Origin: Asterias rubens
Taxonomy: Eukaryota
Assembly: GCF_902459465.1 (NCBI RefSeq)
Contig: NC_047066.1
Location: 6,697,047 to 6,761,046 of the forward strand
Length of the DNA: 64,000 nt
Reading direction: 5' to 3'
This document shows positions 5,507 to 41,272 of this stretch, piece after piece (the stretch's first letter is position 1; every line of letters begins with the position of its first letter). Under the pieces are notes generated by a model. That model was not told the origin of the DNA, made no database searches, and worked only from the letters and a program-made list of their open reading frames with translations. Position numbers and translations under genes: made by a program.

Positions 5507-6067
5507 TCAGACTACAACAGACCCATTATAAGTCCCTGCAATTGAAAGGACTTCCCTCCCCACCGTCTCCTCAGACCCACCATCTAAAAACGTCTCGGTC
5601 AGTTCCCTGAGCGTAATGGCAAGTCGTCTGGCGATTATTGCCCCTCGACATATTCCGTGATTCCAGTCGTGTCTTGCGGCACCAGACACAACAACCAGAC
5701 TCCGCGCTGGGAGTGGTATCCTTACAGTCGGGGCGGTTTGGGGGTCATGCCCGGCAGAGGTCGTATCTGAGGTTGTAACTGGGGTCAGATCTGAGGTCGT
5801 AACTGGGGTCATGTCCAGAAAGGTTCCCGACAACAAGTTGATCGTTATTAATCTCTCTCCCCATAACCAGCTGTCGTCCCTGTGGGGATCAATGGAGGAC
5901 CCTCTGTCCGGGCGATATTCAAGATTGCACAGTTCCACAGGGACAAAGTCGTCCAGACCAGGGTGTGAGTTTATGCGATTCACAAAGGGTTGGATGAATG
6001 GAGGCAGCCCTGTAAAACTTCCAGTTTTAAGTTTTCTTCGTTTGAAATTTACTTTTGGTCCGTAGTC
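5507..6067 (-). CDS. ALKBH4: ALKBH4 exon 3 (DYGPKVNFKRRKLKTGSFTGLPPF … IDPHRDDSWLWGERLITINLL … IPLPARSLVVVSGAARHDWNHGI … *), stop included
   Basis: Near-colinear match to remembered human ALKBH4 (DYGPKVNFRKQKLKTEGF…AIDPHLDDAWLWGERLVSLNLL…IPLPARSLLVLTGAARHQWKHAI). Acceptor ccacag|gactac. HxD iron-binding motif present. Confidence 0.85.
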   Translation of the reverse strand, partial: DYGPKVNFKRRKLKTGSFTGLPPFIQPFVNRINSHPGLDDFVPVELCNLEYRPDRGSSIDPHRDDSWLWGERLITINLLSGTFLDMTPVTTSDLTPVTTSDTTSAGHDPQTAPTVRIPLPARSLVVVSGAARHDWNHGICRGAIIARRLAITLRELTETFLDGGSEETVGREVLSIAGTYNGSVVV

Positions 6068-6394
6068 CTGTGGTCCAAAACAGAGATATAAATTTGTTTT
6101 TATAACCTTGGTTTTTATCACAAAGAATGGGAAACAAAATTAATGATATCATTTTGTTTAAATTTTTTTTCAAAGAGTTCAATAACTTCAACAATATTGC
6201 AAATTAAGTATATAAATTTTAAGTAATTGGAGAGGTTTTACACATTTAATTCTAATTGTTAATGACCAGTGATTAAAACTAAATTTTTTAAAAGGTTGTT
6301 CACAGAGTTTAAAATCTTCAACAAAATTTACAATTAAAAGAATAAGAACCTTTACAAAAAGAAATAACTAAAATAATACAAACTTGGCAAGGTT

Positions 6395-6790
6395 TAAAGC
6401 CATTATACACTTTCGGTAAACAGTATTGTCCAAGTCCCACACTTCGTGTAGCACAACTTATATATAAAATAACAAACCTGTGAAAATTTAGGTTCAATCG
6501 GTCATCGGAGTCGGGAGAAAATAACGGGAAAACCCACTCTTGTTTCCGCACGTTTTGCCGTGTCATGACATGTGTTTAAAATAAATCCGTAATTCTCGCT
6601 ATCGAGAGTTGATATTGTTTTAATGTTTTCTCAAAAAGTAAAGCATTTCATGGAACAATATTTCCAGAGAAGTCTTTCACCATTACCTTCTGTAAACCCT
6701 GTACATTATTCGTAAATCTGTGAACTTTTTTTTCTTCTTTCTGTACCGAAAGTGTATACACTGTAATGGCTTTAAACAAACAAGTTTATA
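6395..6790. mobile_element. MITE family B (TIR gtttaaagccattatacactttcggtaaacag … ctgtaccgaaagtgtatacactgtaatggctttaaac); second copy at about 53765-54070
   Basis: Terminal inverted repeats visible. Shares the central module ataacaaacctgtgaaaattt(a/g)g(g/c)(t/c)caa(t/a)cggtca(t/a)(c/g)g.agt(c/t)g(g/c)gaga(a/t)aataa with family A. Confidence 0.75.
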
Positions 6791-7084
6791 AATTGTTAAT
6801 GACTGGTGATTAATTTAAGTTTGTTTATTAAGATTTAACAAAAATTCAACAAAATAAATCATTGGGCAAATTTTAAACAAACAATGCTCAGTTGTTAATG
6901 GTCAGTGATAAAATAAGTTTGTTTAAAAGTTGTTCAAAAATTTTCAACATTGTTGACAATTTAAAAAATAAACAAAAAGAAGTCATTGGCCAAGTTTTAC
7001 ACAAATAGTTCAAAAAATTGTAATTGAGTAGTGATTTGTTTACAGTTAATAAAGAACTAACTAAAATAAAAACCTTTGTCTCAC

Positions 7085-7312
7085 CTGTTTCCATCGCCCA
7101 GACTGAGATGGTTTCCATGGTGACTCATCAATAATCTGGACAATTTCTGCCTCTTCTTCTTCAGACACAAACTCAGGTATGAGAATGACTCCTGGAAATT
7201 CAAGACCATTCCCGGAGTGCTCACAAGTCGACGTTACTAATGACTTGTCATTGAAACTCTCTGTCTGTTGATACGCTTCATTACACATCCAGCAGTAAAT
7301 GTATGGCTTCTC
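7085..7312 (-). CDS. ALKBH4: ALKBH4 exon 2 (EKPYIYCWMCNEAYQQ…FPGVILIPEFVSEEEEAEIVQIIDESPWKPSQSGRWKQ)
   Basis: Matches human …FPFPGVMLIEDFVTREEEAELVRLMDRDPWKLSQSGRRKQ. Acceptor ttttttaaag|gag and donor cag|gtgaga. 228 nt, phase 0. Confidence 0.85.
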
Positions 7313-8225
7313 CTTTAAAAAATAACACAAACACACTTTTCTGAATTATTAACTTGTTCATAATTTTTTTCTAAAAGTCAGGTGTTTTTTTAAGTATTGC
7401 TTGTGGTTCAGCACATCTCCTTTGTAAAAAATTAAAAAAATTCTGACCTCTGGAAATTATATTATATTTCCTCTGGCAAACTCAAGTTTTGGTGTTCAGT
7501 TTGCATTTAGCCTCACTGATATCTATTTCTTGAAAAATTATGCAGAAAACAAACATTTTATATTCATAATTTCTTAAACTCAAACACTTCGGCAGCTGAA
7601 CAGCGAGGAATTATTAGTAAGAATTATTTAACTAGGCCTACGTCTTGAATTGAAGTTTCATGGCCCAGATGTTTTTTCTTGATTGAATTTTGACAGATGA
7701 TACTGTTCCAAAACAAACAAAAACATGATAAAACTTTGGCATATTCAAGACCCAGTATTCAGTAACTAGGGCGCTGTACTCCTTTTGTTTGAAGTTTGTC
7801 ATTATCTATTGCTATTTAATGACAAACTTTGAAAAAAAGGAGTACAGCGCCCTGGGTCTGAGCTACTCCTAGAACTATGCGGTGTGTTCCCAGATGCTTG
7901 TCCATATGTTTTGTACACAAAGCACGGATTGGGTATTTTTTCTTTTCAGGGCGAACGTGTGCAGACAATTCTTCATGTTTGTCCTGGGAAAAAAAGTACT
8001 CGCACGTACCTCGCAACGAATCGGGCAATCGGCATTTGTCAATGAGAGTTCTAAGGACACATAAGGCCTAATTTTGGCGAGATTTAAAAAAGAAGAAGAG
8101 AGATTTGGGTTAGCAAAATTAAAACTAATAGTTCTAGGAGTAGGTCTGAGCATGGAGAGAGAAAAATATATTTCTACGTCACTCCATGGTCTGAGCATAT
8201 GCCACAGACAATCCAGTGCAATAAT

Positions 8226-8854
8226 GGAAGGCACTAAAAACTAACCTCTACAGCGGTTCGGAACTTTTCGTGTGCTCTCGGAACACTCCGGCACGGTTCG
8301 CGCGATCCCCCACGCAGCAGGTTTGGGGAGTTGTTACATAAGAGTGGACTAACCACTAGGACCTGGTTGTTAATGATTTCATGTCTAAAAGATGCAAGTA
8401 CTGCTTCAGACCTCTTTATTCAAGTACGTTTGTAGCAGCAGGTTTGGGGAGTTGTTACATAAGAGTGGACTAACCACTGGGACCTGGTTGTTAATATTTT
8501 CATGTTTAAAAGTTGCAAGCACTGCTTCAGACCTCTTTATTCAAGTACATTTTTAGCAGCAGGTTTGGGGAGTTGTTACATAAGAGTGGACTAACCACTA
8601 GGACCTGGTTGTTAATATTTTCATGTCTAAAAGATGCAAGCACTGCTTCAGACCTCTTTATTCAATTACGTTTGTAGCAGCAGGTTTGGGGAGTTGTTAC
8701 ATAAGAGTGGACTAACCACTAGGACCTGCATGGTTGTTAATATTTTCATTTCTAAAAGATGCAAGCATATGCAAAATGACGTCATAAGGTCATTCTCGCT
8801 CGGGTATTCTCCGATGGGCCGAACCGCTGTGGAGTTTAGTATTTAGTGCCTTCC
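8226..8854. mobile_element. Mutator-like (MULE-type) MITE with ~34-bp TIRs and an internal 4 x ~120-bp tandem array, in ALKBH4 intron 1
   Basis: TIRs ggaaggcactaaaaactaacctctacagcggttcgg (8226-) and its reverse complement ending at 8854. Exact 9-bp target-site duplication tgcaataat at 8217-8225 and 8855-8863. Confidence 0.75.
8295..8765. repeat. Minisatellite, ~120-bp unit x 4 (agcaggtttggggagttgttacataagagtggactaaccactaggacctggttgttaat…), internal to the MULE-like MITE
   Basis: Four near-identical tandem units visible directly. Confidence 0.85.
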
Positions 8855-9490
8855 TGCAATAATTTTACAACATTAAAAAATATAGTATCTAAAAAACTAA
8901 TTTACCTCGAGATATCCCTTTTTGTTAAAATAAGTGAAAAAGTAGTGGCGCCATATAAGCTTGGGCGATACCACGATATTATCGAATATCGCGATACTAA
9001 TTTAGAAACGATATCGATATCGGATCGATTTTGTATTAATCGAAATATCGGTAAATCGCGATATCGACTAAGTATCGCGATGTATTTCCTAGCCGAGACG
9101 TCTCGCGACAATAAATCTCATAGTGGAGATAATCTTACATCATCACTAAAGAGCTGCGAGTCACCGCAAGATTCCTTTGTAGATTGGACCGACCGGGTTT
9201 CTTCGGAGAAAAAACCCAATCAAAGCAGAGATTAGGCGGCCTTACACAGACTACCGAAAACTACATTTAGAATCACTATTGTATCACATTACACTCCCTT
9301 TGAGTGTGCGGCTCAGGGCCGCTGTCTGCGCCCATCTGAGGTGTAAATCGGCTATTAAACTTGGTAGTTTATTTGGTTAGGCTCTATAGAGAAGAGTGAT
9401 GGTCAACTCAGTTTGGAAATAATTAAAAGAGCCGATCTTTTAATTATTTCCAAACTGACTTGGCCATCATTCTACTTCAATCGTTCAAAG

Positions 9491-9898
9491 ATGGAAGGTG
9501 AACTGCGTCTTGTGTCTAAGAAAAAAACAACTTCTGCCGTATGGGTTCATTTTGGTATTGCTGTTGATGAAGACGGAAAAGCAACGACTGAAAATGAAGC
9601 GACCTGCCGCATTTGCTTCAAAAAGGTCTCAATCAAAGGTGGCACTACGTCAAATTTAAGCAGTCATCTCAAGGTAAAACACCCTGCCGAGTCGGCAAGA
9701 CTACAGCCCTCTGCGTCGCCATCACAATCAAATAGAGCCGGTCCATCGAGATCAAATCTAACCACCATCACGGATGCATTTACCCGTCCAAAAAGAAAGT
9801 TTTATTTGAAAAAAGAAATCAACTGCCAATGGTGCGTCATTGAATTACCAAACATTACTAAATTATGTAAGCCTTTACTTTTACGACGGCAGCGCTAA
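9491..9898 (+). CDS. BED-type zinc-finger ORF (…SAVWVHFG…CRICFKKVSIKGGTTSNLSSHLKVKHPAE…). A transposase-derived fragment with no DDE or dimerisation domain.
   Basis: C-x2-C…H-x4-H spacing and the W-x-HF signature of BED fingers. ATG at 9491; the ORF track's TTG at 9413 is rejected. It lies inside the hAT-like element. Confidence 0.6.
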   Translation: MEGELRLVSKKKTTSAVWVHFGIAVDEDGKATTENEATCRICFKKVSIKGGTTSNLSSHLKVKHPAESARLQPSASPSQSNRAGPSRSNLTTITDAFTRPKRKFYLKKEINCQWCVIELPNITKLCKPLLLRRQR

Positions 9899-9956
9899 TC
9901 AATTGAATACATTTACCGATCTGTTGGTAAATGTATTCAATTGATAAGCGCTGCCA
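9888..9956. repeat. Perfect ~30-bp-stem hairpin (cggcagcgctaatcaattgaatacatttaccgat | ctgttggtaaatgtattcaattgataagcgctgcc) immediately 3' of the BED ORF
   Basis: Inverted repeat read directly from the sequence. Confidence 0.8.
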
Positions 9957-10770
9957 CACTGCGCCGTCAAATAAAAGTAAAGACCTACTGAATATTGGCC
10001 TCCCTCCTCACTCTCAGTCTGTGACACAGCCGCAAGATTCCTTTGTAGATTGGACCGGCCGGGTTGTTTCAGGGGGGAAAAAACATCAAAGCGGGGATTA
10101 GGCGGTCTCACACAGACTACCGAAAACTACAGTGTGTCTGCAGAACGCCAGGGTCACTGCATGCTCACTGCACCACCACGTGTGTGCTGCACCACCACGT
10201 GTGTGCAAGTAGCGCTAGCGCAAACTTATTAGTCATGCAAACAATAGAGCAGTCTGTCATGCGCAGACGTTAACATCTTAAACACATGTAGTAAGTAATG
10301 GCCCCTAGTTTTACACCCCATTGGTTTGGAGTAAAACCAGAAGAATAGGTCATTACAACACCTCTCTTATATGCTACAACTGTCTCTTCTACAACTTTCA
10401 CTGGGAGTTTGAAGACTGATGATGTTAAATTTAATTAATCGCGATTATCGAATATCGCGATATATTGTTGGCGATATATCGTGAATAAAATAAATCGATA
10501 TCGCCCAAGCTTAGTGCCATACGAAAAGTTATCCTATCTTTCTTTAAAAATATTCCCTATAAATAAGCTTTACGTTCACAAAAACCAATAAACTTGGTTT
10601 TTAGTTTCAGACCATGTTGACATACAAAACTCTGACTGGTGAGGGACAACAGCGCCCTCATTGGCAATTGCAGTTGAGAAAAAAAGAATGAACACAAATA
10701 TCTGAACAATTCCGACAAAAGTCACGAGTCGAAGTTGAAAGAAAATAAACCTTATATAATAGAAACTTAC

Positions 10771-10890
10771 ATGTGGTGACTTTGATGTGACAGTACTTTG
10801 CGAAACATCACATCCATTTTCACATCCATTTTCACATGATAAACAAGTTCTTATGCCCTTACACCCACATTTCTCTCCCCAATCCACCAT
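10771..10890 (-). CDS. ALKBH4: ALKBH4 exon 1 (MVDWGEKCGCKGIRTCLSCENGCENGCDVSQSTVTSKSPH)
   Basis: Start ATG (plus-strand cat at 10888-10890). The CGCKGIRTCL motif is shared with human ALKBH4 (ECGCKGIRTCLIC). Donor cat|gtaagt at 10771. Confidence 0.7.
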
Positions 10891-12448
10891 TTTCACACAT
10901 GCGCGTATAGTCCAGTACATGTAGCCCAAATACACACGACTACGCATGACGATGAACGCGCCCAATAGCCCCAAAATTGGGCTTGGATATCGCCCGATTA
11001 TGGGATATCCTCAAAGAGGGCGCTATACAAATTATACAGCGCCCTCCTCCTCCTTTTCTCTTTGTGACGGCGACGCGGCGGTCATAGGTTGGCTCATATT
11101 TTTCAACGGATCGTCTCAAAAAAGTTTGTCGTTTTGCAAGATCTTGAGGTGTTAGCTTCTGAGAAGGCAAGGAAACATTCATCGATTCGTAAGTAACCTT
11201 TTCGTAAATAAATTCTATTAATTCAAACAGTGGATGTTCTCGTTTCATGGGAGTGTCGATCGCGCCACTTTGCTCAATTTTGAGCGACATTTTTTTTTCC
11301 AGGGGCGCGTCGCGACCAGTAACAAATTTTCAAACATGAGATCGCAGTTTTTAGACATTATTTTAATGAATCTTTATTGATTACAATAAATCATATTTTA
11401 CCAGATATTCTGGACGTGCTAAAAATGGAAAAAGTGAGGTGATCTTGTATGAATTTCAGGTTAAATATCCTTTCACTTGCCATGGTCCCAAAATTATTTT
11501 TATATTTTGATGATTTTTTCCATCTCGTTTCCGTCTGTAGAGGGCGCTGTAAAAATACAATTTGCATGTTTGTTTTGGTTTCATTCAAAAGTTTTACTGA
11601 GTCATTTTTGACTGAAAACAAGATTGCAATGGTACCTCACGGGGGTTCCCATGAAATTTGAAACAGGATTACTAACATGAATTTTTAATTTAAAAATTTA
11701 TAATTTGCAAAACTATAGTAGAGTTGGCCTGCACAGGAAATAAAATTACTCAAATAAAAAGTATTATTGGAGTGAATGACCAGAGAGAAGAGACCAAAGC
11801 CAAAGGTTTAGGCAGTTTTTTTTTCTCCAATTATAATATATCACTGTATCAAATGGTACAACATTATCTGTTCAGTTCCATTGTTTTATTAAATTAAATG
11901 TTATGGTCTGAAAATCGTCCAATGTGATTTACTTTCTCACAGACTAAAACACTTAAAAAATGCCACTCTTTTCATGTCCTTGAATGTTATTTCTTTCAAT
12001 TCAATTCAATTCAATTCAATTAACTTTATTTCCAACTCCAAACAAGTAAACAAAACAATTAGGAGTGAATCAAGAATTATGTTTTACAAGCAAATGGAAT
12101 AATGATAATACATGAAGTAATAATACAACATTTACAAGCAAAAGCAAAATATAAATTACGGAAAACAAAACAAAACCAAAACAGCACAAGGTGATGGGGT
12201 TGTAGGGGGCCCATAAAAAGCAATGCTTGTCGAGGATAGACCCCCCCCCCCCTTACGGAAGCAAAACTAATAGGTGGAAAGAGCGAGTAAAATGTAGTGG
12301 CATAAAAAATCAGTTTACAAAAAGAAACAAACACAATACAGTAGGCGCTATTCTAAATAAATTCTAAGCAATAAATTAAGAGCTTAACAATAAAATATCA
12401 ACTTAACCATTTGTTTTTTTGCCCACAACTTTAATCCAGTATAGAAAG
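10891..12448. promoter_or_regulatory. Putative bidirectional promoter / intergenic region between divergent ALKBH4 (-) and LRWD1 (+)
   Basis: The two start codons lie 1.56 kb apart on opposite strands. CpG-dense blocks at about 10950-11110 and 11240-11320 (cgcgcc, ggcgacgcggcggtc, gtcgatcgcgcc, ggcgcgtcgcgacc). Confidence 0.5.
11998..12033. repeat. Microsatellite (caatt)n x ~6, upstream of LRWD1
   Basis: Direct observation. Confidence 0.9.
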
Positions 12449-13432
12449 ATGTCAGAAAACGCTAACATCCCCGCTGAACCAACACCTACAGAGCCCGATC
12501 TGGTGCCCCCTGCTGAAGAAGCTGCACCCATTCTCCAAGTCGAGCCTGCCATTTCAGAAGAAGCTCCTGTCCCTGAAGACGATTCCACTCCACAACTCCT
12601 GGCAGCAGTCGAGCCCGAGCAGACCCTTGACCTCATTCCAGAGGCCCAAGTCGAAAGCGTCCCAGTCCTTCAACCGGAATCAGTGCCGGAAATCCCAGCA
12701 GAGGCGATCCAGAATGCAGCGGAGCTAGCCCAGACTGTGACTTCAGAGAATGTTCTCCAGATCGCCCTTGAGGCGGTCCAAGCCGTCGCGGAAGCTGTAC
12801 CCACAGAGGGCATTCCGGAGCAAGTTGCCCAGCTCGCCCCGCAAGAAGCAGCCGAACCGACGGTCGAGCAAGTGATGTATCCAGTCGCCGATCAGATTAT
12901 TCCCGTTGAGATCATCAATGCTCCACAAGAGCAGCAAGAGGGAGAGCAAGTCGCTGAACCCGTCCTGGAGGCCGTCCTGGAACCCGTCATGGAATCTGCC
13001 CTGGAACCTGCCATGGAACCTGTCCTGGAAACCGCCCTGGAACCCGCCTTGAACGAGGTGGCTCCTGAGCCCCAGGTCGAACAGACCCTAGCTGCCATGC
13101 CAACTCTAGAGCCGCCATCCACTGTGCAACCCTACAATCCTCAACACACCGCCCCGGCCATCTCTCCACCCAAGATCACATCCTACACGGCTGTTCACAC
13201 GACGACCGGCATCATGCGTTACACGCCAGGGATAATGTCTGCCCTCGCTGGCAAGTATTCCAACAGCAGTCAGTTAGTGGAGCAGCTGGTACTCAACTGC
13301 GCTGGGTGTATCTCCCTGTCGGATATCCGCGTTCTGGACATGTCCAATCGAAAGATCATGAACCTTGACCCCGCTGTGTTTTCCCGGATGCCGGAGCTGG
13401 AAGAACTGGACATTTCCTTCAATAAAATAAAG
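12449..13432 (+). CDS. LRWD1: LRWD1 exon 1. ATG, then a long acidic/Pro-rich low-complexity extension, then the first leucine-rich repeats (LVLNCAGCISLSDIRVLDMSNRKIMNLDPAVFSRMPELEELDISFNKIK).
   Basis: Long ORF with LRR consensus at its 3' end. Donor aag|gtactaag at 13433. The ORF track's TTG at 12419 is rejected in favour of the ATG at 12449. Confidence 0.75.
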
Positions 13433-13977
13433 GTACTAAGAATAAATGTTCATTGTAACCCTTGGTGCGACTCTAATAAAACACTTTAAGGCAAGGTATA
13501 CTTTTGGGAATTGTCAAAGACCACTTTCCTCACTTGGTGTATTCAACATATACAATACCTGTGAAAATTTGGGCTCAATTGGTCATCGGAAAAAATCCCC
13601 TTGTTGAATAGAATTATGTGCTTTCAGTTTGTTTTTTTAGATGCCCAAGAAACCTATTTAACTCCATGCACCATTTTGTTTGAAATTCTGAGGCCTCGAA
13701 ATCAAATTCAAATATTTTAGTGAGAAATGACTTCTTTCTCGAAAAGGACGTTCTTCAGAGGGAGCCATTTCTCACAATGTTTTATACTATCAACATCTCT
13801 CCATTGATTGCTACCAATTAAGTTTTTGTGCTAACAATTATTTTGAGTATTTCCAGTGCCTTTAAGCAATGGTTACTAAGCCTCAGTATCCTTCACTGGA
13901 AGGAATTGGGACGGTAAGGTCCTTCGTTTTAACTTATAAGAGCCATTGTTTTTTCATACCAGGGTTTTCCAACGCAG

Positions 13978-14094
13978 CTTGGCCTGAGGAAGCTGAGATA
14001 CCTGAACCTCAAGAAGAACTCCCTCAAGAGTGTCTTGACACTGGAGCAGTTCCCCAACCTGGAGGAACTCAATATTGACGAGAATGACCTGAAC
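13978..14094 (+). CDS. LRWD1: LRWD1 exon 2 (LGLRKLRYLNLKKNSLKSVLTLEQFPNLEELNIDENDLN), LRR
   Basis: Acceptor aacgcag|ctt and donor aac|gtaagt. 117 nt, phase 0. LRR periodicity. Confidence 0.8.
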
Positions 14095-14687
14095 GTAAGT
14101 AGGATTTCAAGCAACCTCGTTTCTGGGGGTGATAAATCTCGCAGTCCCAGTAGGCAACTCGCTTAAAACCCCTGGAATTGGTTCAATTTTTCTGACATCT
14201 GGTACATCTTAAGTTACGCCTTTTGCCAATCCACTCTTCGCACCCGCTCAAGTACGGTAGCCTGCAAAACACGGCATCAAGTCAAAGAGCGACTGATCTC
14301 CTGAGATTTTCTTTGATTGTTGAGGTGCGAGGTTTTATGTCCTCACTTTTAAGTGATTTCTGTTGGACCCCCAGAGTTCAGCAAAATGTTGCAATGCGAG
14401 TGAGGCTGTCACAGTTTATCACAAACAATACATTCCATTTGGTTTGGGCAGAAGGACCATTTCTTCCAAGGAAATCTTATCCCATACTGAGAAATGTTCA
14501 TCATTTGAATATTGATCACTGGGCCTGATAATAAACCATGTTTATTAGAAACAACGAACTGATACTTTTAAAATCTTGTGACACCTAGAACAATAGAAAA
14601 CGAATGTTGAAATGGAAACGAAACACTGGTAGATTCAAAGAAGGAAAAACAAAATCGTATAATTTCTGTTTAATTTCTCATGTGTAG

Positions 14688-17790: not shown

Positions 17791-17857
17791 GTGAGTTTTC
17801 AGATTGGTTTAATTTCGTTTTATTTATTCTTCTTCTTCCTTTCTGGAAGTGCAGCCT

Positions 17858-18170
17858 TCATGATTGAAGACAAACACACTGCCAGACACACCGTGGCAAA
17901 CCCCTTTTCATGATTGAAGACAAACACACTGCCAGACACACCGTGGCAAACCCCCTTTTCATGATTGAAGATAAACACACGGCAAGACACACCGTGGCAA
18001 ACCCCTTTTCATGATTGAAGATAAACACACTGCCAGACACACCGTGGCAAACCCCTTTTCATGATTGAAGATAAACACACTGCCAGACACACAGTGGCAA
18101 ACCCCTTTTCATGATTGAAGATAAACACACTGCCAGACACACCGTGGCAAAACCCCTTTTCTTTGCAATA
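17858..18170. repeat. Minisatellite, ~61-bp unit x 5 (cttttcatgattgaagacaaacacactgccagacacaccgtggcaaaccc) in LRWD1 intron 8
   Basis: Direct tandem units. Generates the artefactual overlapping minus-strand ORFs at 17858-18379. Confidence 0.85.
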
Positions 18171-21995: not shown

Positions 21996-24639
21996 TCTTT
22001 CATGTTCCCCCGCCCTCCCCCCCCACCCGCTCCCCCAAGTCAAATTAAAAACAACAACAGGAAAAGTCCCAAAATTCCTGTGTATTTTTAAAAACTGTGT
22101 TGTGGATACCTTGTGTTTTTTAAAAGACCTCTTAAAAATTGGTAGAATTTGTAAATTGTTTCTTGGATACTGAAAATGTTGACTTTTTTAAACGATATTT
22201 TTTGTTTTATATTTTAGTTTACCGTCAATTACTCTTGTAAAGTTTTTATTAATTTGTTTGTTTTTATTTTATTTTATTTTTTAAGATACTTACGTAAATC
22301 CTTTTTGTTGTTGTTTCAGACTTTCTGCTGGACTTACATTTCAAATGAATTTTGTAAAGCTTTAACATGCTCCGAACTAAAGTAATAAATTAACTTACAA
22401 AAAAAGAATAATAAATGCGATTTTGAAATTTGGCTGATCAAATATTTAAACAAATTGACACTTGCTTTTTTTTTTACTTTTTTTTTTTTACTTTAAGAAT
22501 GGCATGAATGAAATATAATTTAAACATTCCGGTTTGCAAATAGGAAAATGGCGCTTGATTTGATTACAAAAATATGTGAGAGAATATTGGCTGAAAATGG
22601 TACATTTTCAAAATTTCAGGCTCATATTTAATTGGGTCCTTGGCCCACGGCCCAATTTCATAGTGCTGCTTGAGGACATTAAGTAGCTATGCAAAGCGCA
22701 ATTATGGTTCCCAGAATATGGTTAGCAGCTTAAATACCATGTCACATGTACAATCTGTGACTGGTAGCCTCTTTGTTTATGGTTAGCAGCTTAAATACCA
22801 TGTCACATGTACAATCTGTGACTGGTAGGCTCTTTCCAACCATATGCATTTTATGAAAAACGGTTACAAACGCTTTTTATAGATCAACTCGTCCGATCCA
22901 AGGCAACGTGTTCCTTTGAAATGGGTTATTGTTCTTGGAAAGACAGAGAAGTTTTTTATCTGTCTGTCCATTGTACTTGGATGTCATATTTCCTGTGCTA
23001 CCAATTTGTTTTACTTTTACATCGGTTCAGAGTAGGTTGATTTTGCCACGTGTAAAGATTTGTGATTTGAAAATTTTTTGTGCTTTTTCATGAAATGCAT
23101 ACAGTGGGAAGGCCACTTAAAAACTTGTTTTGTTTCCAAAATATTTTTTTGTTGTTTTTTTTCCTCACTATATTATACCTCAGTGTATTAACGTGTATAT
23201 AGTAAGACATCATGTAATGTGTAGGCGGGTAGTGTAGTGTTGCGTTGAGTCAGTTGTACATAAGGTCAGGGCTTGGTTTGGGTTCGTCAGTGTTCATAAA
23301 CAATTCTGAAATTATCTCAAATCAGCGACTCTTTCTATCACTTGCAAAATTGGTTTTTATAAATGTTCACAAATTTTCTGAAATATCTCGAAGCAGTGAC
23401 TCTTTATATTACAAACCAAAATTATGGAATTGCTAAACTTTTGAGTCTAGTTGTCTTTTGAATTGGGTGAGCAGTAATTTTTTTTTTACAGAATCATGTT
23501 TAAAGCATGGCTGGAGGGATTTTTTGTTGTGTTACCAAAGTCTAAAACTGTTTTTATCCATTGGTCCTTGTTGCCTTGTCAAATATGCAAATACCTTTTT
23601 TGTTAAACTTTGGTGTATGAATCGTTATTTTTCTAGATTTCATGTTATATTGTTTTCAGTAAGTCAGCATCATGCAATTTTCCTCCTACATGTCCATCAT
23701 TTATTCGCTCTATCGTATAAAACCCTTACACCAAAATGTATAATTTATGGTGCACTTAATTGACTACCATGTCAGGTTTAATATAATTAGGTTAATCAAG
23801 ACTGTGAGCATATTATGCAGTTACTTGTAGCATTTGCGAAGTTTTTAAACACGTACATGTTCTGCTCACTTTAGAACAAATTTGTTGGCTGTTTGAATTT
23901 TCTTTGAAAAATACGTTTTCAAAGCAATTAGGGTTAGGTTACCTGTGATTCAACTTTATTAAAGTGGGAAAGAAACTTATATGTACACATTGATAATTAA
24001 AATGAACCTTAATCAAGAATATCACTGAATGTACAAAAATTAAAACCCCAAACCCAAAATATGTAATTGTAATAATTGTAGTTTACCAAGCCAATAAATA
24101 TACAGATGTTTCGTAAAGAACCACATTGAGATGCTGAGGTTTGGTCATTTGTTTACAATGCAATCAACATATGTTTGTTTTTTTGTTTGTTGGGGTGTTT
24201 GGTTGGTTATAAACTGTCACCAGGGGCACATTGTCACCTATTCCTGGGGCTAAAACAGGGTTATTACCTTCAAAGTCCGCAAGAATGTGGACATGGGTAT
24301 CATCATTTAGGAGCCTCACCTTCTATGAAGCAATTATGATTAAAAGCCTTGCTCAAGGGCACAAGTGCCTTGCTCAAGGGCACAAGTGTCTTTGGAGGGA
24401 TTCAAACCCAGTCTGCTGCTGACGAAACCAAATCTTGGGCTCTGTCAAAACTGCTCGACCAGTGGTTGCAACTGATCAGTAATATTGTAAAATGACCCAC
24501 ATTTGGGGTGGCATGGTTGGCTTGTGCATAAAACGCTCGCCTCTCACCAAGGTGCCCCCTGGTTCGATTCCCGGCCAGGGCCATTATGTGAGTTGAGTTG
24601 TGTGTTGGTTCTCTCCTGTGCCTTGAGGGTTTTCAAGAC

Positions 24640-25210
24640 TATCCGGTTTTCCTCCCTTGGGAAAAATCAAACACTTTGGCTATGCTCCGTAGTCATAATG
24701 GGTCGATGTGGCTGGCAGCCAAAGGCGCCCTTGCATGCCTGCTTCTTGTAGCCCCGCCCTTCGCAATTCAGCTCTAGCTGCGAGTAAGGATGATTAGCCA
24801 CCAAATTATTATTTTGTCAAAACAAACACAAGTTAAAATAGTCATAATGGGTCGATGTAGCTGGCAGCCAAAGGCGCCCTTGCATGCCTGCTACTTGTAG
24901 CCCCGCCCTTCGCAATTCAGCTCTAGCTGCGAGTAAGGATGATTAGCCACCAAATTATTATTGTTTTGTCAAAACAAACACAAGTTAAAATAACGCAGAC
25001 TGTCCGGTTTTCCTCCCTTGGGAAAAATCAAACACTTTGGATATGCTCCGTAGTCATAATGGGTCGATGTGGCTGGCAGCCAAAGGCGCCCTTGCATGCC
25101 TGCTTCTTGTAGCCCCGCCCTTCGCAATTCAGCTCTAGCTGCGAGTAAGGATGATTAGCCACCAAATTATTATTGTTTTGTCAAAACAAACACAAGTTAA
25201 AATAACGCAA
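24640..25210. repeat. Tandem array of ~190 bp x ~2.7 (…gtcataatgggtcgatgtggctggcagccaaaggcgcccttgcatgcctgc…gttaaaata), preceded by a tRNA-like SINE head at 24480-24600
   Basis: Direct repeats read from the sequence. ggttcgattcccggccagggcca is a T-arm-like box. Confidence 0.75.
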
Positions 25211-40386: not shown

Positions 40387-41062
40387 CGGTACGGATTGAG
40401 GAGAAAACATTAAGAAAATAAATAAAAAATCAGTTGCTGCAAAAAGTCCCCAAGGCCTTTTCACTGTCTCCGTAATTGAGTTAGGCCTTCAAGTAAGTCA
40501 AGGTTTATCCATCGACCATGATAAATCAAGCGTAATTTCATTTTATGGCAACGTGAAATTGGTGCAAAAAATACAGAATAAATCAGAGCGACGGAAAGAC
40601 ACATTTTTTCCTGAAGCAAAGCAAATTGGCATTTCAAGAGTGAGAGAGCATCATTACAACAAGGATAATGAACACCCCCCCCCCCTGAAAAAAAAAACAC
40701 CTTAAAAACCGTCACTTCACAAAGAACTACTAAATACAAATTGTTTTGCTTAACACAGAAAAAGAAGGAAAAAAACAGGTTAGCGGTCAACTTCATAAGG
40801 TTTTTACTGTTGCCACTGGTGTACTTCTTTCTCAGCAAAAGAAATTTGCTTTTGAGATGCAGTATTTTCTGCTAAACAGCTTCATGAAAATAACTGGGCA
40901 CTTGTCTTTGGCCTCACCTGTGTGACTGTAGTGCATGAGATAAATAATTCTAATGTTGACATCGTCATCGAGTTTCATTTTCGATCTCAGTTTATTCAAA
41001 TTGCTAATTTGTACTAATTTCTTGCTTCTTATGTTACTTTGGGGACATCTAGATGGCCTCAC

Positions 41063-41272
41063 CTGTGTGACTGGACTCTGGGCCTGAAACAGAATCCTCC
41101 TCCCCAGTAGCTCAGCGAAGATGCAGCCCACCGACCAGACGTCAACCGACGACCCATAATGCTTACTGCCGACCAGGATCTCCGGCGCTCGGTAGTACTG
41201 TGTGATGACCTCTTGGGTCATGTGTTTGTTTGTGTCTGGTTCCTCCAAGCGGGCCAGCCCAAAATCACATAT
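41063..41272 (-). CDS. NLK: NLK exon (ICDFGLARLEEPDTNKHMTQEVITQYYRAPEILVGSKHYGSSVDVWSVGCIFAELLGRRILFQAQSPVTQ), DFG through subdomain IX
   Basis: Matches human ICDFGLARVEELDESRHMTQEVVTQYYRAPEILMGSRHYSNAIDIWSVGCIFAELLGRRILFQAQSPIQQ. 210 nt. Acceptor cactag|ata and donor cag|gtgagg. Confidence 0.9.

Follow-up and report, generated by a model that had tools for sequence, protein, structure and literature searches.

Evidence for a young, non-autonomous hAT element with a BED-only reading frame in an ALKBH4-like intron of Asterias rubens

The window analysed here, a stretch of 64,000 nucleotides of the Asterias rubens genome, contains an ALKBH4-like gene whose exons (10890-10771, 7312-7085 and 6070-5510) are 100% identical to the A. 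rubens protein XP_033627925.1, and whose GTAAGT splice donor can be read directly in the sequence. Intron 1 of this gene (7313-10770) harbours a 1,558-bp element spanning window positions 8956-10513, which lies on the opposite strand, antisense to the gene. An earlier note, made from the sequence alone, had placed a hAT-like element at 8948-10521, and our boundaries represent a slight correction of these coordinates. The features of the locus are collected in Table 1.

Table 1. Features of the element and its surroundings (window coordinates).
Feature	Position	Strand	Remarks
Left target-site duplication copy, GCGCCATA	8948-8955	.	ancestral target sequence; single GCGCCATA at the A. amurensis ortholog
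Left terminal inverted repeat, TAAGCTTGGGCGATA	8956-8970	+	15 nt, 100% complementary to the right end
Left subterminal region	8971-9100	.	three ATCGCGAT (8988, 9055, 9074); TATCGATA at 9012-9019; presumed BED-binding repeats
Direct repeat, copy 1	9164-9265	+	102 nt
Hairpin 1	9390-9476	.	arms 9390-9430/9436-9476, 41 nt, 90% complementary, 5-nt loop
ORF, truncated hAT transposase	9491-9898	+	135 aa plus stop, from ATG
Palindrome at the presumed deletion breakpoint	9862-9993	.	132 bp, imperfect; inner and outer arms
Direct repeat, copy 2	10030-10131	+	86.7% over 105 columns, E 5e-28
Tandem duplication, 19-bp unit CTGCACCACCACGTGTGTG	10168-10205	+	perfect
Right subterminal region	10430-10498	.	two ATCGCGAT (10438, 10454)
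Right terminal inverted repeat	10499-10513	-	exact reverse complement of TAAGCTTGGGCGATA, 15/15 nt complementary
Right target-site duplication copy, GTGCCATA	10514-10521	.	one C>T at a CpG relative to the left copy
ALKBH4-like coding exon 1	10771-10890	-	258 bp from the element

The element is bounded by terminal inverted repeats (TIRs) whose length of 15 bp falls within the ~10-25 bp span of the hAT superfamily. These two ends are the only zero-mismatch matches to the TIR in the whole 64 kb, and matches with three mismatches occur elsewhere in the window at chance level. The usual terminal consensus of hAT elements is YARNG; the tip found here, TAAGC, agrees with it at four of five positions, the fifth base being C rather than G. 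Directly outside the TIRs lie the two copies of an 8-bp target-site duplication (TSD), the length typical of hAT insertions, which agree at 7/8 positions (the chance of at least 7/8 agreement between 8-mers at a fixed position is ~4e-4 by our own calculation). Buster-type hAT elements prefer the target nnnTAnnn. The target given for Hermes, of the Ac/Hermes type, is nTnnnnAn (PMC10368747), and GCGCCATA matches neither pattern on either strand, a misfit that weighs little because such preferences are statistical and only one site was looked at. A BLAST comparison of the element with the masked window revealed no further copies within it.

Asterias amurensis lacks the element at the orthologous site and shows no footprint there; its sequence reads aaagtagtgGCGCCATAtggaaag. 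Window segments 8909-8956 and 10516-14543 align at 94-96% identity to adjacent, overlapping segments of the A. amurensis locus (L003, 10411-10364 and 10370-6309, respectively). Since a single copy of GCGCCATA stands there without the element, the insertion is genuine, as are its exact boundaries and the duplication, and the earlier description of TIRs flanked by an 8-bp duplication matching at 7/8 positions holds, with the ends shifted slightly. Judging from this alignment, the insertion postdates the split between A. rubens and A. amurensis, and the two species provide a clean example of a filled and an empty site, in which the duplication is exactly 8 bp long and no footprint is left.

Short repeats are concentrated just inside the TIRs. 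The motif CGATA/TATCG occurs 13 times over 8956-9100 (including the left TIR, within which the first, at 8966, lies) and seven times over 10430-10513 (including the right TIR, which contains the last, at 10499), so that 20 motifs in all are packed into 145 bp at one end and 84 bp at the other, with none in the intervening 1,329 bp; the density in the remainder of the window is 0.59 per kb. All five of the five copies of ATCGCGAT in the window are likewise confined to the ends of the element. In addition, the ratio of observed to expected CpG is 3.35 in the left subterminal region, as compared with 0.59 for the window, and reaches 4.15 in the right one. A 19-nt module, ATTATCGAATATCGCGATA, occurs twice in direct orientation and without any difference, at 8978-8996 and at 10444-10462; its distance to the tip is 22 nt on the left and 51 nt on the right. 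These counts, with motifs restricted to the ends, bear out the earlier observation of clustered repeats near both termini, a hAT trait, and the repeats are presumed to be binding sites for the transposase. The subterminal sequence TATCGCGATA agrees at 9/10 positions with hDRE, the binding site published for ZBED1 (TGTCG(C/T)GA(C/T)A, with the critical core TCGCGA; PMC7471704), and retains the core. The Drosophila DRE, TATCGATA, is found in the element as well. A full-text literature search returned, among the papers it covered, none tying the DRE motif to the ends of hAT transposons.

The ORF carried by the element contains a zf-BED domain (Pfam E 3.4e-11, 43.4 bits against a cutoff of 20.6) at residues 15-65, corresponding to 9533-9685, and of the solved structures the BED domain of human ZBED1 (2CT5, E 1.3e-7) matches it best. 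No other Pfam domain was detected in any ORF of the element. Transposases of the hAT superfamily are laid out as an N-terminal BED finger, an RNase-H-like core and a C-terminal hAT dimerisation domain. An exhaustive HMMER search with the ORF yielded 942 matches, including three full-length proteins (P0089, P0113 and P0142) that each combine zf-BED with Dimer_Tnp_hAT, the first of them additionally with ZBED1_RNase-like families, and the nearest full-length relatives are annotated as ZBED1-like, with Pfam families of the ZBED1_RNase-like kind. The ORF aligns with full-length ZBED1-like hAT transposases from its N-terminus to about residue 128 (~9883), where the alignment halts after a conserved K-x-M-x-P and just ahead of the TVEK motif; the last few codons consist of breakpoint sequence. 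When full-length relatives were used as tblastn queries, no trace of the remaining transposase, that is, of the catalytic core and dimerisation domain, was detected anywhere in the window, as would be expected for a deletion derivative. Because both of these parts are absent here, hAT membership as judged from the protein rests on the retained N-terminal part. At the level of sequence, the BED and N-terminal hAT homology is clear, and so is the lack of the remaining transposase. These data agree with the earlier reading of a 135-aa ORF with a canonical BED finger, upheld by HMM search, and no DDE domain, and, together with the empty site, they support its description of the element as a non-autonomous hAT keeping only the BED finger.

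A full-length hAT with the same TIRs, as envisaged in the earlier note, was not found in JGI metagenome contigs, prokaryote genomes or protein collections. A DNA pattern combining the TIR with subterminal ATCGCGAT gave no matches in the JGI metagenome contigs and none in prokaryotic genome contigs, while a protein-based locus search of the JGI metagenome contigs gave 600 pattern matches and no confirmed relatives. The protein collections contained no close full-length relative of the ORF and, two metagenome copies excepted, nothing more than ~55% identical to it; in annotated proteomes no homologue of the truncated form was found. The contigs of the closest full-length relative (L004 and L005) have no recognisable TIRs, no similarity to the element termini and only two CGATAT; they come from another family and shed no light on this one.

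The two metagenome copies are informative as to the age of the element. One (L001) is 99% identical with a differing indel pattern, on a contig that starts 2 nt inside the left TIR, and the other (L002) is 97.4% identical. The element is therefore present in more than one copy, with distinct indels and substitutions, and these two copies probably sit at distinct loci. They reproduce the TIRs; the contigs end without flanking DNA, so the TSD is corroborated by the window locus and the empty site rather than by the flanks of other copies. The ORF in the window shows 0/408 differences from that of L001, as against 13 in ~1,020 aligned bases elsewhere, together with several indels. About five differences would be expected in the ORF under neutrality, which makes their absence mildly unexpected (P ~0.006, our own calculation), although the window element and L001 may be sister copies of recent origin, or else two alleles at a single locus. 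The ORF of L002 is decayed: it carries K45stop, frameshifting deletions of 1 bp and 5 bp, and changes that are all nonsynonymous (7/7, with 0 synonymous), and its divergence is 2.0% inside the ORF versus 2.4% outside. Three copies are too few for a meaningful dN/dS. The decay of this copy and the absence of the element from the sister species imply that the intactness of the ORF in the window reflects youth, not selection. The idea put forward earlier, of an intact ORF serving as raw material for ZBED-type domestication, is not supported by these observations, and neither the orthologous conservation nor the purifying selection that characterise a domesticated ZBED-type gene was found.

The ~100-bp direct repeats reported around the BED ORF are present, at slightly adjusted positions (Table 1), with 84% ungapped identity between the copies and 86.7% when gaps are allowed; in L001 and L002 the similarity of copy 1 to copy 2 runs at least 10 nt further to the left. 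Hairpin 1, which terminates 14 nt upstream of the ATG and is present in both metagenome copies, has an uninterrupted inner stem of 23 bp and a predicted DNA fold of -31.9 kcal/mol (z -12.5). A hairpin had indeed been recognised here, at 9430-9475, but its 19-bp stem is part of the larger structure. Similarly, the 30-bp hairpin noted after the ORF exists but is not perfect: its 30-nt arms (9888-9917/9926-9955) are 97% complementary (fold -32.9 kcal/mol, z -11.1) and form the core of a longer palindrome, whose outer arms (9862-9883/9972-9993) are 82% complementary. The left outer arm holds the final stretch of transposase coding sequence that the element has kept, and the right outer arm is therefore an inverted duplicate of that stretch.

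Several other origins for these internal structures were considered and set aside. LTR-type miniature retroelements (TRIMs) are recognised by TG...CA repeats next to a primer-binding site, together with a polypurine tract and duplication of 5 bp at the target. Neither of the 102-bp direct repeats is adjoined by a TGG-type primer-binding site; a polypurine tract in the right place is also missing, and the flanking 5-mers do not match. An origin of the hairpins as independent MITE insertions seems unlikely: the sequence shows no duplications beside them, and both hairpins are common to the other copies that span them. Comparison with known RNA families produced just far-sub-threshold matches to miRNA precursors, reflecting hairpin shape, and a scan for bacterial promoters and terminators was disregarded as irrelevant for an animal genome.

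Taken together, these data make it very probable that the segment is a young, non-autonomous, internally deleted hAT element of the ZBED1-like (Ac-type) kind inserted in intron 1 of the A. rubens ALKBH4-like gene. With its 15-bp TIRs and its subterminal clusters of CGATA and ATCGCGAT, the element would retain everything needed in cis, and its mobilisation would presumably depend on a full-length transposase from its own family, acting in trans. The BED finger of that transposase would bind the subterminal repeats, and integration would generate the 8-bp duplication, in keeping with what is described for Hermes, a hAT transposase whose BED domains bind subterminal repeats, and with the 8-bp duplications that hAT integration produces (PMC10368747). 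Approximately 1.5 kb coding for the catalytic core and dimerisation domain appears to have been lost, probably through double-strand-gap repair that was interrupted and involved template switching. Such an event may have left the inverted duplication, now seen as the palindrome, exactly at the breakpoint; both template switching and filler capture have been described in the gap repair of TIR elements (PMC8277862). What survives of the transposase gene is its 5' end, the 135-aa BED ORF, which has not decayed and is most likely non-functional. For the ~100-bp direct repeats and hairpin 1 this account offers no more than a generic explanation.

It is conceivable that the deletion derivative has instead been kept, in some copies, as a repressor, its BED-only protein being expressed and competing with transposase at the subterminal repeats. 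The ORF has its own ATG and a complete BED finger, and its DNA is 100% identical between the window and L001, although 13 substitutions and several indels separate these copies outside it. Furthermore, isolated Hermes BED domains bind subterminal repeats (PMC10368747), and the element's subterminal motif agrees with sites to which related BED proteins bind (PMC7471704). Against this, L002 combines a stop with two frameshifting deletions and exclusively nonsynonymous change, at a divergence inside the ORF that is the same as outside, the ORF lacks a dimerisation domain, the annotated proteomes hold no homologue of the truncated form, and a hairpin with 41-nt arms ends 14 nt before the ATG. We therefore judge a repressor role to be decidedly unlikely. 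Less probable still, and by a clear step, is a Pack-type origin, in which a non-autonomous TIR element, instead of keeping the 5' end of its own transposase, would have captured a BED-coding fragment, whether from one of the host's ZBED genes or from a hAT unrelated to it, along with filler, the direct repeats and hairpins marking the junctions. The symmetric order of direct repeat, hairpin, ORF, hairpin and direct repeat fits such a history, and filler capture by template switching is documented for animal TIR elements (PMC8277862). However, the fragment starts at the natural N-terminus of a hAT transposase and is colinear with it past the BED finger, and no donor locus was seen within the window. 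The subterminal repeats, moreover, are of the CGATA/TCGCGA type bound by ZBED1/DREF-class BED fingers, so that finger and element ends look matched. Finally, a host BED-finger gene or exon of the ZBED-type domesticated kind, to which the intact finger and its closest solved relative, domesticated human ZBED1, might have pointed, is already effectively refuted and has next to no probability, since the whole segment is missing from the orthologous A. amurensis intron with its clean single target site, is bounded by TIRs and TSD, lies antisense within the ALKBH4-like intron and has near-identical copies, one of them a pseudogene.

The non-autonomous hAT insertion favoured here is a textbook case of an ordinary, known kind of cut-and-paste element, of use mainly for repeat annotation in asteriid genomes, and nothing in these sequences shows a leftover gene in use. 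The insertion records recent DNA-transposon activity in A. rubens after its split from A. amurensis. A more far-reaching proposition, and in our estimation an unlikely one, is that the transposon lineage from which DREF and ZBED1 came has in this element a "wild" relative, whose BED finger recognises its own TATCGCGATA, TATCGATA and CGATA repeats, the class of motif bound by these domesticated proteins and by BEAF-32 at housekeeping promoters and insulators. Were this so, the BED-only 135-aa product could compete at these sites, and each copy would deliver ~20 clustered DRE-like sites to which a host DREF/ZBED1 orthologue could bind; this would be relevant to the copy studied here, which lies close to ALKBH4-like exon 1, near the ALKBH4/LRWD1 head-to-head promoter region. 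The near-coincidence of the repeats with ZBED1/DREF sites would make the idea that such specificity was inherited from transposon ends directly testable.

Among known systems, maize Ds, derived from Ac, and animal hAT-N elements share with this element short TIRs, an 8-bp TSD, clustered subterminal repeats, loss of the core, rearranged or filler sequence at the junction and, presumably also here, reliance on transposase supplied in trans. The element differs from them in having an ORF intact from start to stop that covers the BED finger and the N-terminal 128 residues, which is not typical of MITE-like elements and is not unusual in principle, and in its TAAGC tip, where theirs is commonly of the CAG/TAG type. 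The KP element of Drosophila P and the DNA-binding-only truncations of Ac are deletion derivatives of the repressor type. Like the element described here, they keep only the N-terminal DNA-binding part, whereas here one copy of the ORF is degenerate and a repressor role is putative. Hermes resembles the element in its N-terminal BED domain, its 8-bp duplications and its subterminal repeats near the tips, which are asymmetric between the two ends (PMC10368747), as is the ATTATCGAATATCGCGATA module; Hermes, however, is autonomous, its repeat is AAGT/C in place of CGATA/ATCGCGAT, and its target preference is not that seen here. ZBED1 and DREF, which are domesticated hAT transposases, are alike in the BED finger, for which ZBED1 provides the closest structure, and in the ZBED1-like annotation of the ORF's relatives, and the TATCGCGATA of the element comes within one position of the hDRE, while its TATCGATA is the Drosophila DRE. 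Whereas these proteins are the products of conserved host genes and both retain catalytic-like and hATC domains, the element in A. rubens lacks those domains and is mobile, lineage-specific and bounded by TIRs and a TSD.

We identify the 1,558-bp element at window positions 8956–10513 as a young, internally deleted, non-autonomous ZBED1-like hAT transposon in intron 1 of an ALKBH4-like gene of Asterias rubens; it is a further example of a well-known transposon type. The distance to exon 1 is 258 bp, and the BED ORF is antisense to the host gene (5510–10890, minus strand). The three coding exons (10890–10771, 7312–7085 and 6070–5510) are each 100% identical to Asterias rubens XP_033627925.1, and a 204-aa ORF at 5507–6121 (minus strand) is 97% identical to its Asterias amurensis ALKBH4-like counterpart. 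An LRWD1-like gene starts at about 12419 on the plus strand, head-to-head with the ALKBH4-like gene and ~1.5 kb away; this order is also found in Asterias amurensis, and human ALKBH4 and LRWD1 are neighbours as well.

As an empty-site test, the Asterias amurensis ALKBH4 locus (L003; GCA_032118995.1) was aligned to the window. Window 8909–8956 corresponds to L003 10411–10364 (95.8%) and window 10516–14543 to L003 10370–6309 (94.1%). Both blocks adjoin in Asterias amurensis, overlapping by 7 nt, and the site reads ...aaagtagtgGCGCCATAtggaaagttatcc..., with a single 8-mer, no element and no additional bases. This empty site marks 8956–10513 as an insertion bounded exactly by the inverted-repeat tips, and shows an 8-bp target duplication of ancestral sequence GCGCCATA, whose right copy has since mutated at a CpG, the sole mismatch between the flanking 8-mers being C>T. 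The element inserted after the rubens/amurensis split; precise loss in Asterias amurensis is unlikely because hAT excision normally leaves footprints. The earlier note, which had classed the element as a non-autonomous hAT retaining only a BED finger, was right, and the empty site shows the insertion to be real.

Features of the hAT element and its flanks (window positions)
Feature	Position	Description	Source
Flanking 8-mers	8948–8955 (GCGCCATA); 10514–10521 (GTGCCATA)	7/8 match, directly outside inverted repeats	
Terminal inverted repeats TAAGCTTGGGCGATA	8956–8970; 10499–10513	perfect, 15 nt	repeat scan
Module ATTATCGAATATCGCGATA	8978–8996; 10444–10462	19 nt, exact copies, direct (not inverted) orientation	repeat scan
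Octamer ATCGCGAT	8988; 9055; 9074; 10438; 10454	5/5 of the window's occurrences, in element ends	
Direct repeats	9164–9265; 10030–10131	102 nt, 84–87% identical	
Hairpin 1	9390–9476	41-nt arms, z −12.5	
BED ORF	9491–9898 from ATG	135 aa	
Hairpin 2	9888–9955	30-nt arms, 29/30 complementary, z −11.1	
Tandem duplication	10168–10205	perfect, 2 x 19 bp	

Within the 64-kb window, TAAGCTTGGGCGATA occurs without mismatch only at the two termini. Both element ends are dense with short repeats containing CpG: CGATA/TATCG is found 13 times in 8956–9100 and 7 times in 10430–10513, is absent from the intervening 1,329 bp and has a density of 0.59 per kb in the rest of the window. The CpG observed/expected ratio reaches 3.35 in the left end and 4.15 in the right end, vs 0.59 for the window. 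The distance from the ATTATCGAATATCGCGATA module to the element tip is 22 nt on the left and 51 nt on the right; since the same module stands near both ends in direct orientation, the ends are asymmetric.

The BED homology proposed in the earlier note was confirmed by HMM search, in which ORF residues 15–65 matched the entire Pfam zf-BED profile (E 3.4e-11); of the solved structures, the human ZBED1 BED domain matches best (2CT5, E 1.3e-7). Searched exhaustively with HMMER, a set of 1.84 billion representative proteins yielded 942 matches to the ORF at E ≤ 1e-3. Among the single-finger, full-length matches, P0089 (644 aa), P0113 (628 aa), P0142 (508 aa) and others combine zf-BED with the hAT C-terminal dimerisation domain PF05699, P0089 additionally containing ZBED1_RNase-like families, and full-length relatives, where named, are called 'ZBED1-like'. 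The top matches to the finger itself (P0003, P0005 and P0008) are proteins of 1,840–3,242 aa with 14–34 BED-like stretches each. Multiple alignment shows the ORF to be colinear with hAT transposases from their N-termini via the BED finger and 'TI..F' linker, ending at a conserved K-x-M-x-P that precedes 'TVEK' (~residue 128, ~nt 9883). A tblastn search of the whole window with eleven full-length transposase relatives recovered this N-terminal piece and no remainder, and a Pfam search of the element's other small ORFs gave no matches. Together, these results show that the ORF is what remains of a ZBED1-like hAT transposase gene, namely its 5′ fifth, and that the element has lost ~500 residues that make up the catalytic core, the insertion domain and the dimerisation domain.

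The endpoint of this deletion coincides with a palindrome: transposase homology stops at ~9883, and the near-perfect inner arms of hairpin 2 start at 9888, forming the core of a longer imperfect palindrome (9862–9993). Its outer left arm (9862–9883) is the final retained coding sequence, which recurs inverted at 9972–9993, implying that the right half arose at the break as an inverted duplication. Deletion plus inverted duplicate would be the kind of product expected of interrupted gap repair with template switching, a process documented for Ac/Ds. It has likewise been documented for TIR elements (PMC8277862). Separate MITE insertions are a less likely origin of the hairpins, which show no flanking duplications. 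The feature description in the earlier note was correct except on two hairpin points: what it gave as a 19-bp-stem hairpin at 9430–9475 is hairpin 1, which is larger and differently placed, and the 30-bp hairpin it called perfect is hairpin 2, with its one mismatch.

The two direct-repeat copies have diverged by 13–16%, far above the 1–3% between element copies, and are older than the subfamily's amplification; the autonomous parent may already have carried them in its non-coding 5′ and 3′ regions. A TRIM/LTR reading of them fails on the primer-binding site, the polypurine tract and the duplication. A 'Pack' origin, with the BED fragment captured, is less parsimonious than internal deletion, as the fragment begins at the natural N-terminus and fits the class of motif found at the element's own termini.

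A word-indexed protein search with the ORF found only two relatives, both copies of the element on ENA metagenome assembly contigs. The first, L001 (1,461 nt, 99% identical to the window copy), aligns with it from the third nucleotide of the left inverted repeat up to a point 48 nt short of the right end, is missing 73 bp of direct repeat 1 and has an ORF identical at the DNA level; its contig breaks off no more than 2 nt from the element tip, which probably reflects how assemblers behave at the boundary of dispersed repeats. In the second, L002 (693 nt, 97.4% identical), the ORF carries 1-bp and 5-bp deletions, all seven ORF substitutions are nonsynonymous (K45stop included), and divergence is equal in and outside the ORF (2.0% vs 2.4%). 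Both share a 29-bp segment with the palindrome GTCTGTGACAGTCACAGAC (L001 208–236), directly left of direct repeat 1, that is absent from the window copy (relative to 9162/9163). The family thus comprises several members that have diverged slightly, and in at least one of them the ORF is decaying neutrally. Searches of JGI metagenome contigs and prokaryotic genomes turned up neither an autonomous partner nor additional copies. Beyond the two metagenome copies, protein collections contained nothing more than ~55% identical to the ORF; this absence carries little weight, as transposases are often left out of repeat-masked annotation. That the ORF is intact and identical in two copies could suggest a BED-only protein acting as a KP-like repressor; L002 speaks against general constraint, and we regard this as highly improbable, the intact ORF being best explained by recency. 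A host or domesticated BED gene is ruled out by the empty site together with the inverted repeats and target duplication, the antisense position within an intron and the degenerate copy.

Several other repeats were noted in the window. The same ALKBH4 intron holds a 121-bp tandem array (8314–8767; 3.7 copies, 94% matches) 188 bp left of the hAT insertion; window 8226–8908 (683 bp) corresponds to only ~97 bp in Asterias amurensis (L003 10412–10508), so this array is also lineage-specific. A 50-bp array in the LRWD1-like gene region (17857–18161; 6.1 copies, 96%) is also present in Asterias amurensis (L003 2269–2422), apparently with fewer units, and the first large LRWD1-like ORF contains a 12-bp coding repeat (12956–13054; 8.3 copies) encoding repeated EPV/LEP-type peptides. 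Two-copy tandem duplications lie at 22717–22835 and 24690–24992 (61-bp and 149-bp units, 96–98% identity). An ORF at 40832–41248 (minus strand) encodes a protein-kinase segment, …YYRAPEIL…DVWSVGCIFAELL…, resembling Nemo-like kinase by eye only.

In the hAT transposon Hermes, N-terminal BED domains bind short subterminal repeats that are tip-concentrated and asymmetrically arranged, these interactions drive transpososome assembly, and integration yields 8-bp duplications (PMC10368747). The placement of ATTATCGAATATCGCGATA shows the same asymmetric arrangement. By analogy with Hermes, the CGATA/ATCGCGAT clusters are putative sites for the family's BED finger, and the element would have kept all cis requirements while needing transposase in trans. 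The 10-mer TATCGCGATA, at 8987 and 10453, has a single mismatch to the ZBED1 site hDRE, TGTCG(C/T)GA(C/T)A, with the critical TCGCGA core intact; the Drosophila DREF site TATCGATA is present at 9012–9019, and CGATA is the BEAF-32 site (PMC7471704). At the level of motifs, this likeness supports the clusters as predicted BED-finger sites. Among the papers covered by a full-text search, none linked the DREF/ZBED1 motif to hAT transposon ends. The one feature of the element of specialist interest is that its subterminal repeats are nearly identical to the recognition sequences of DREF and ZBED1.
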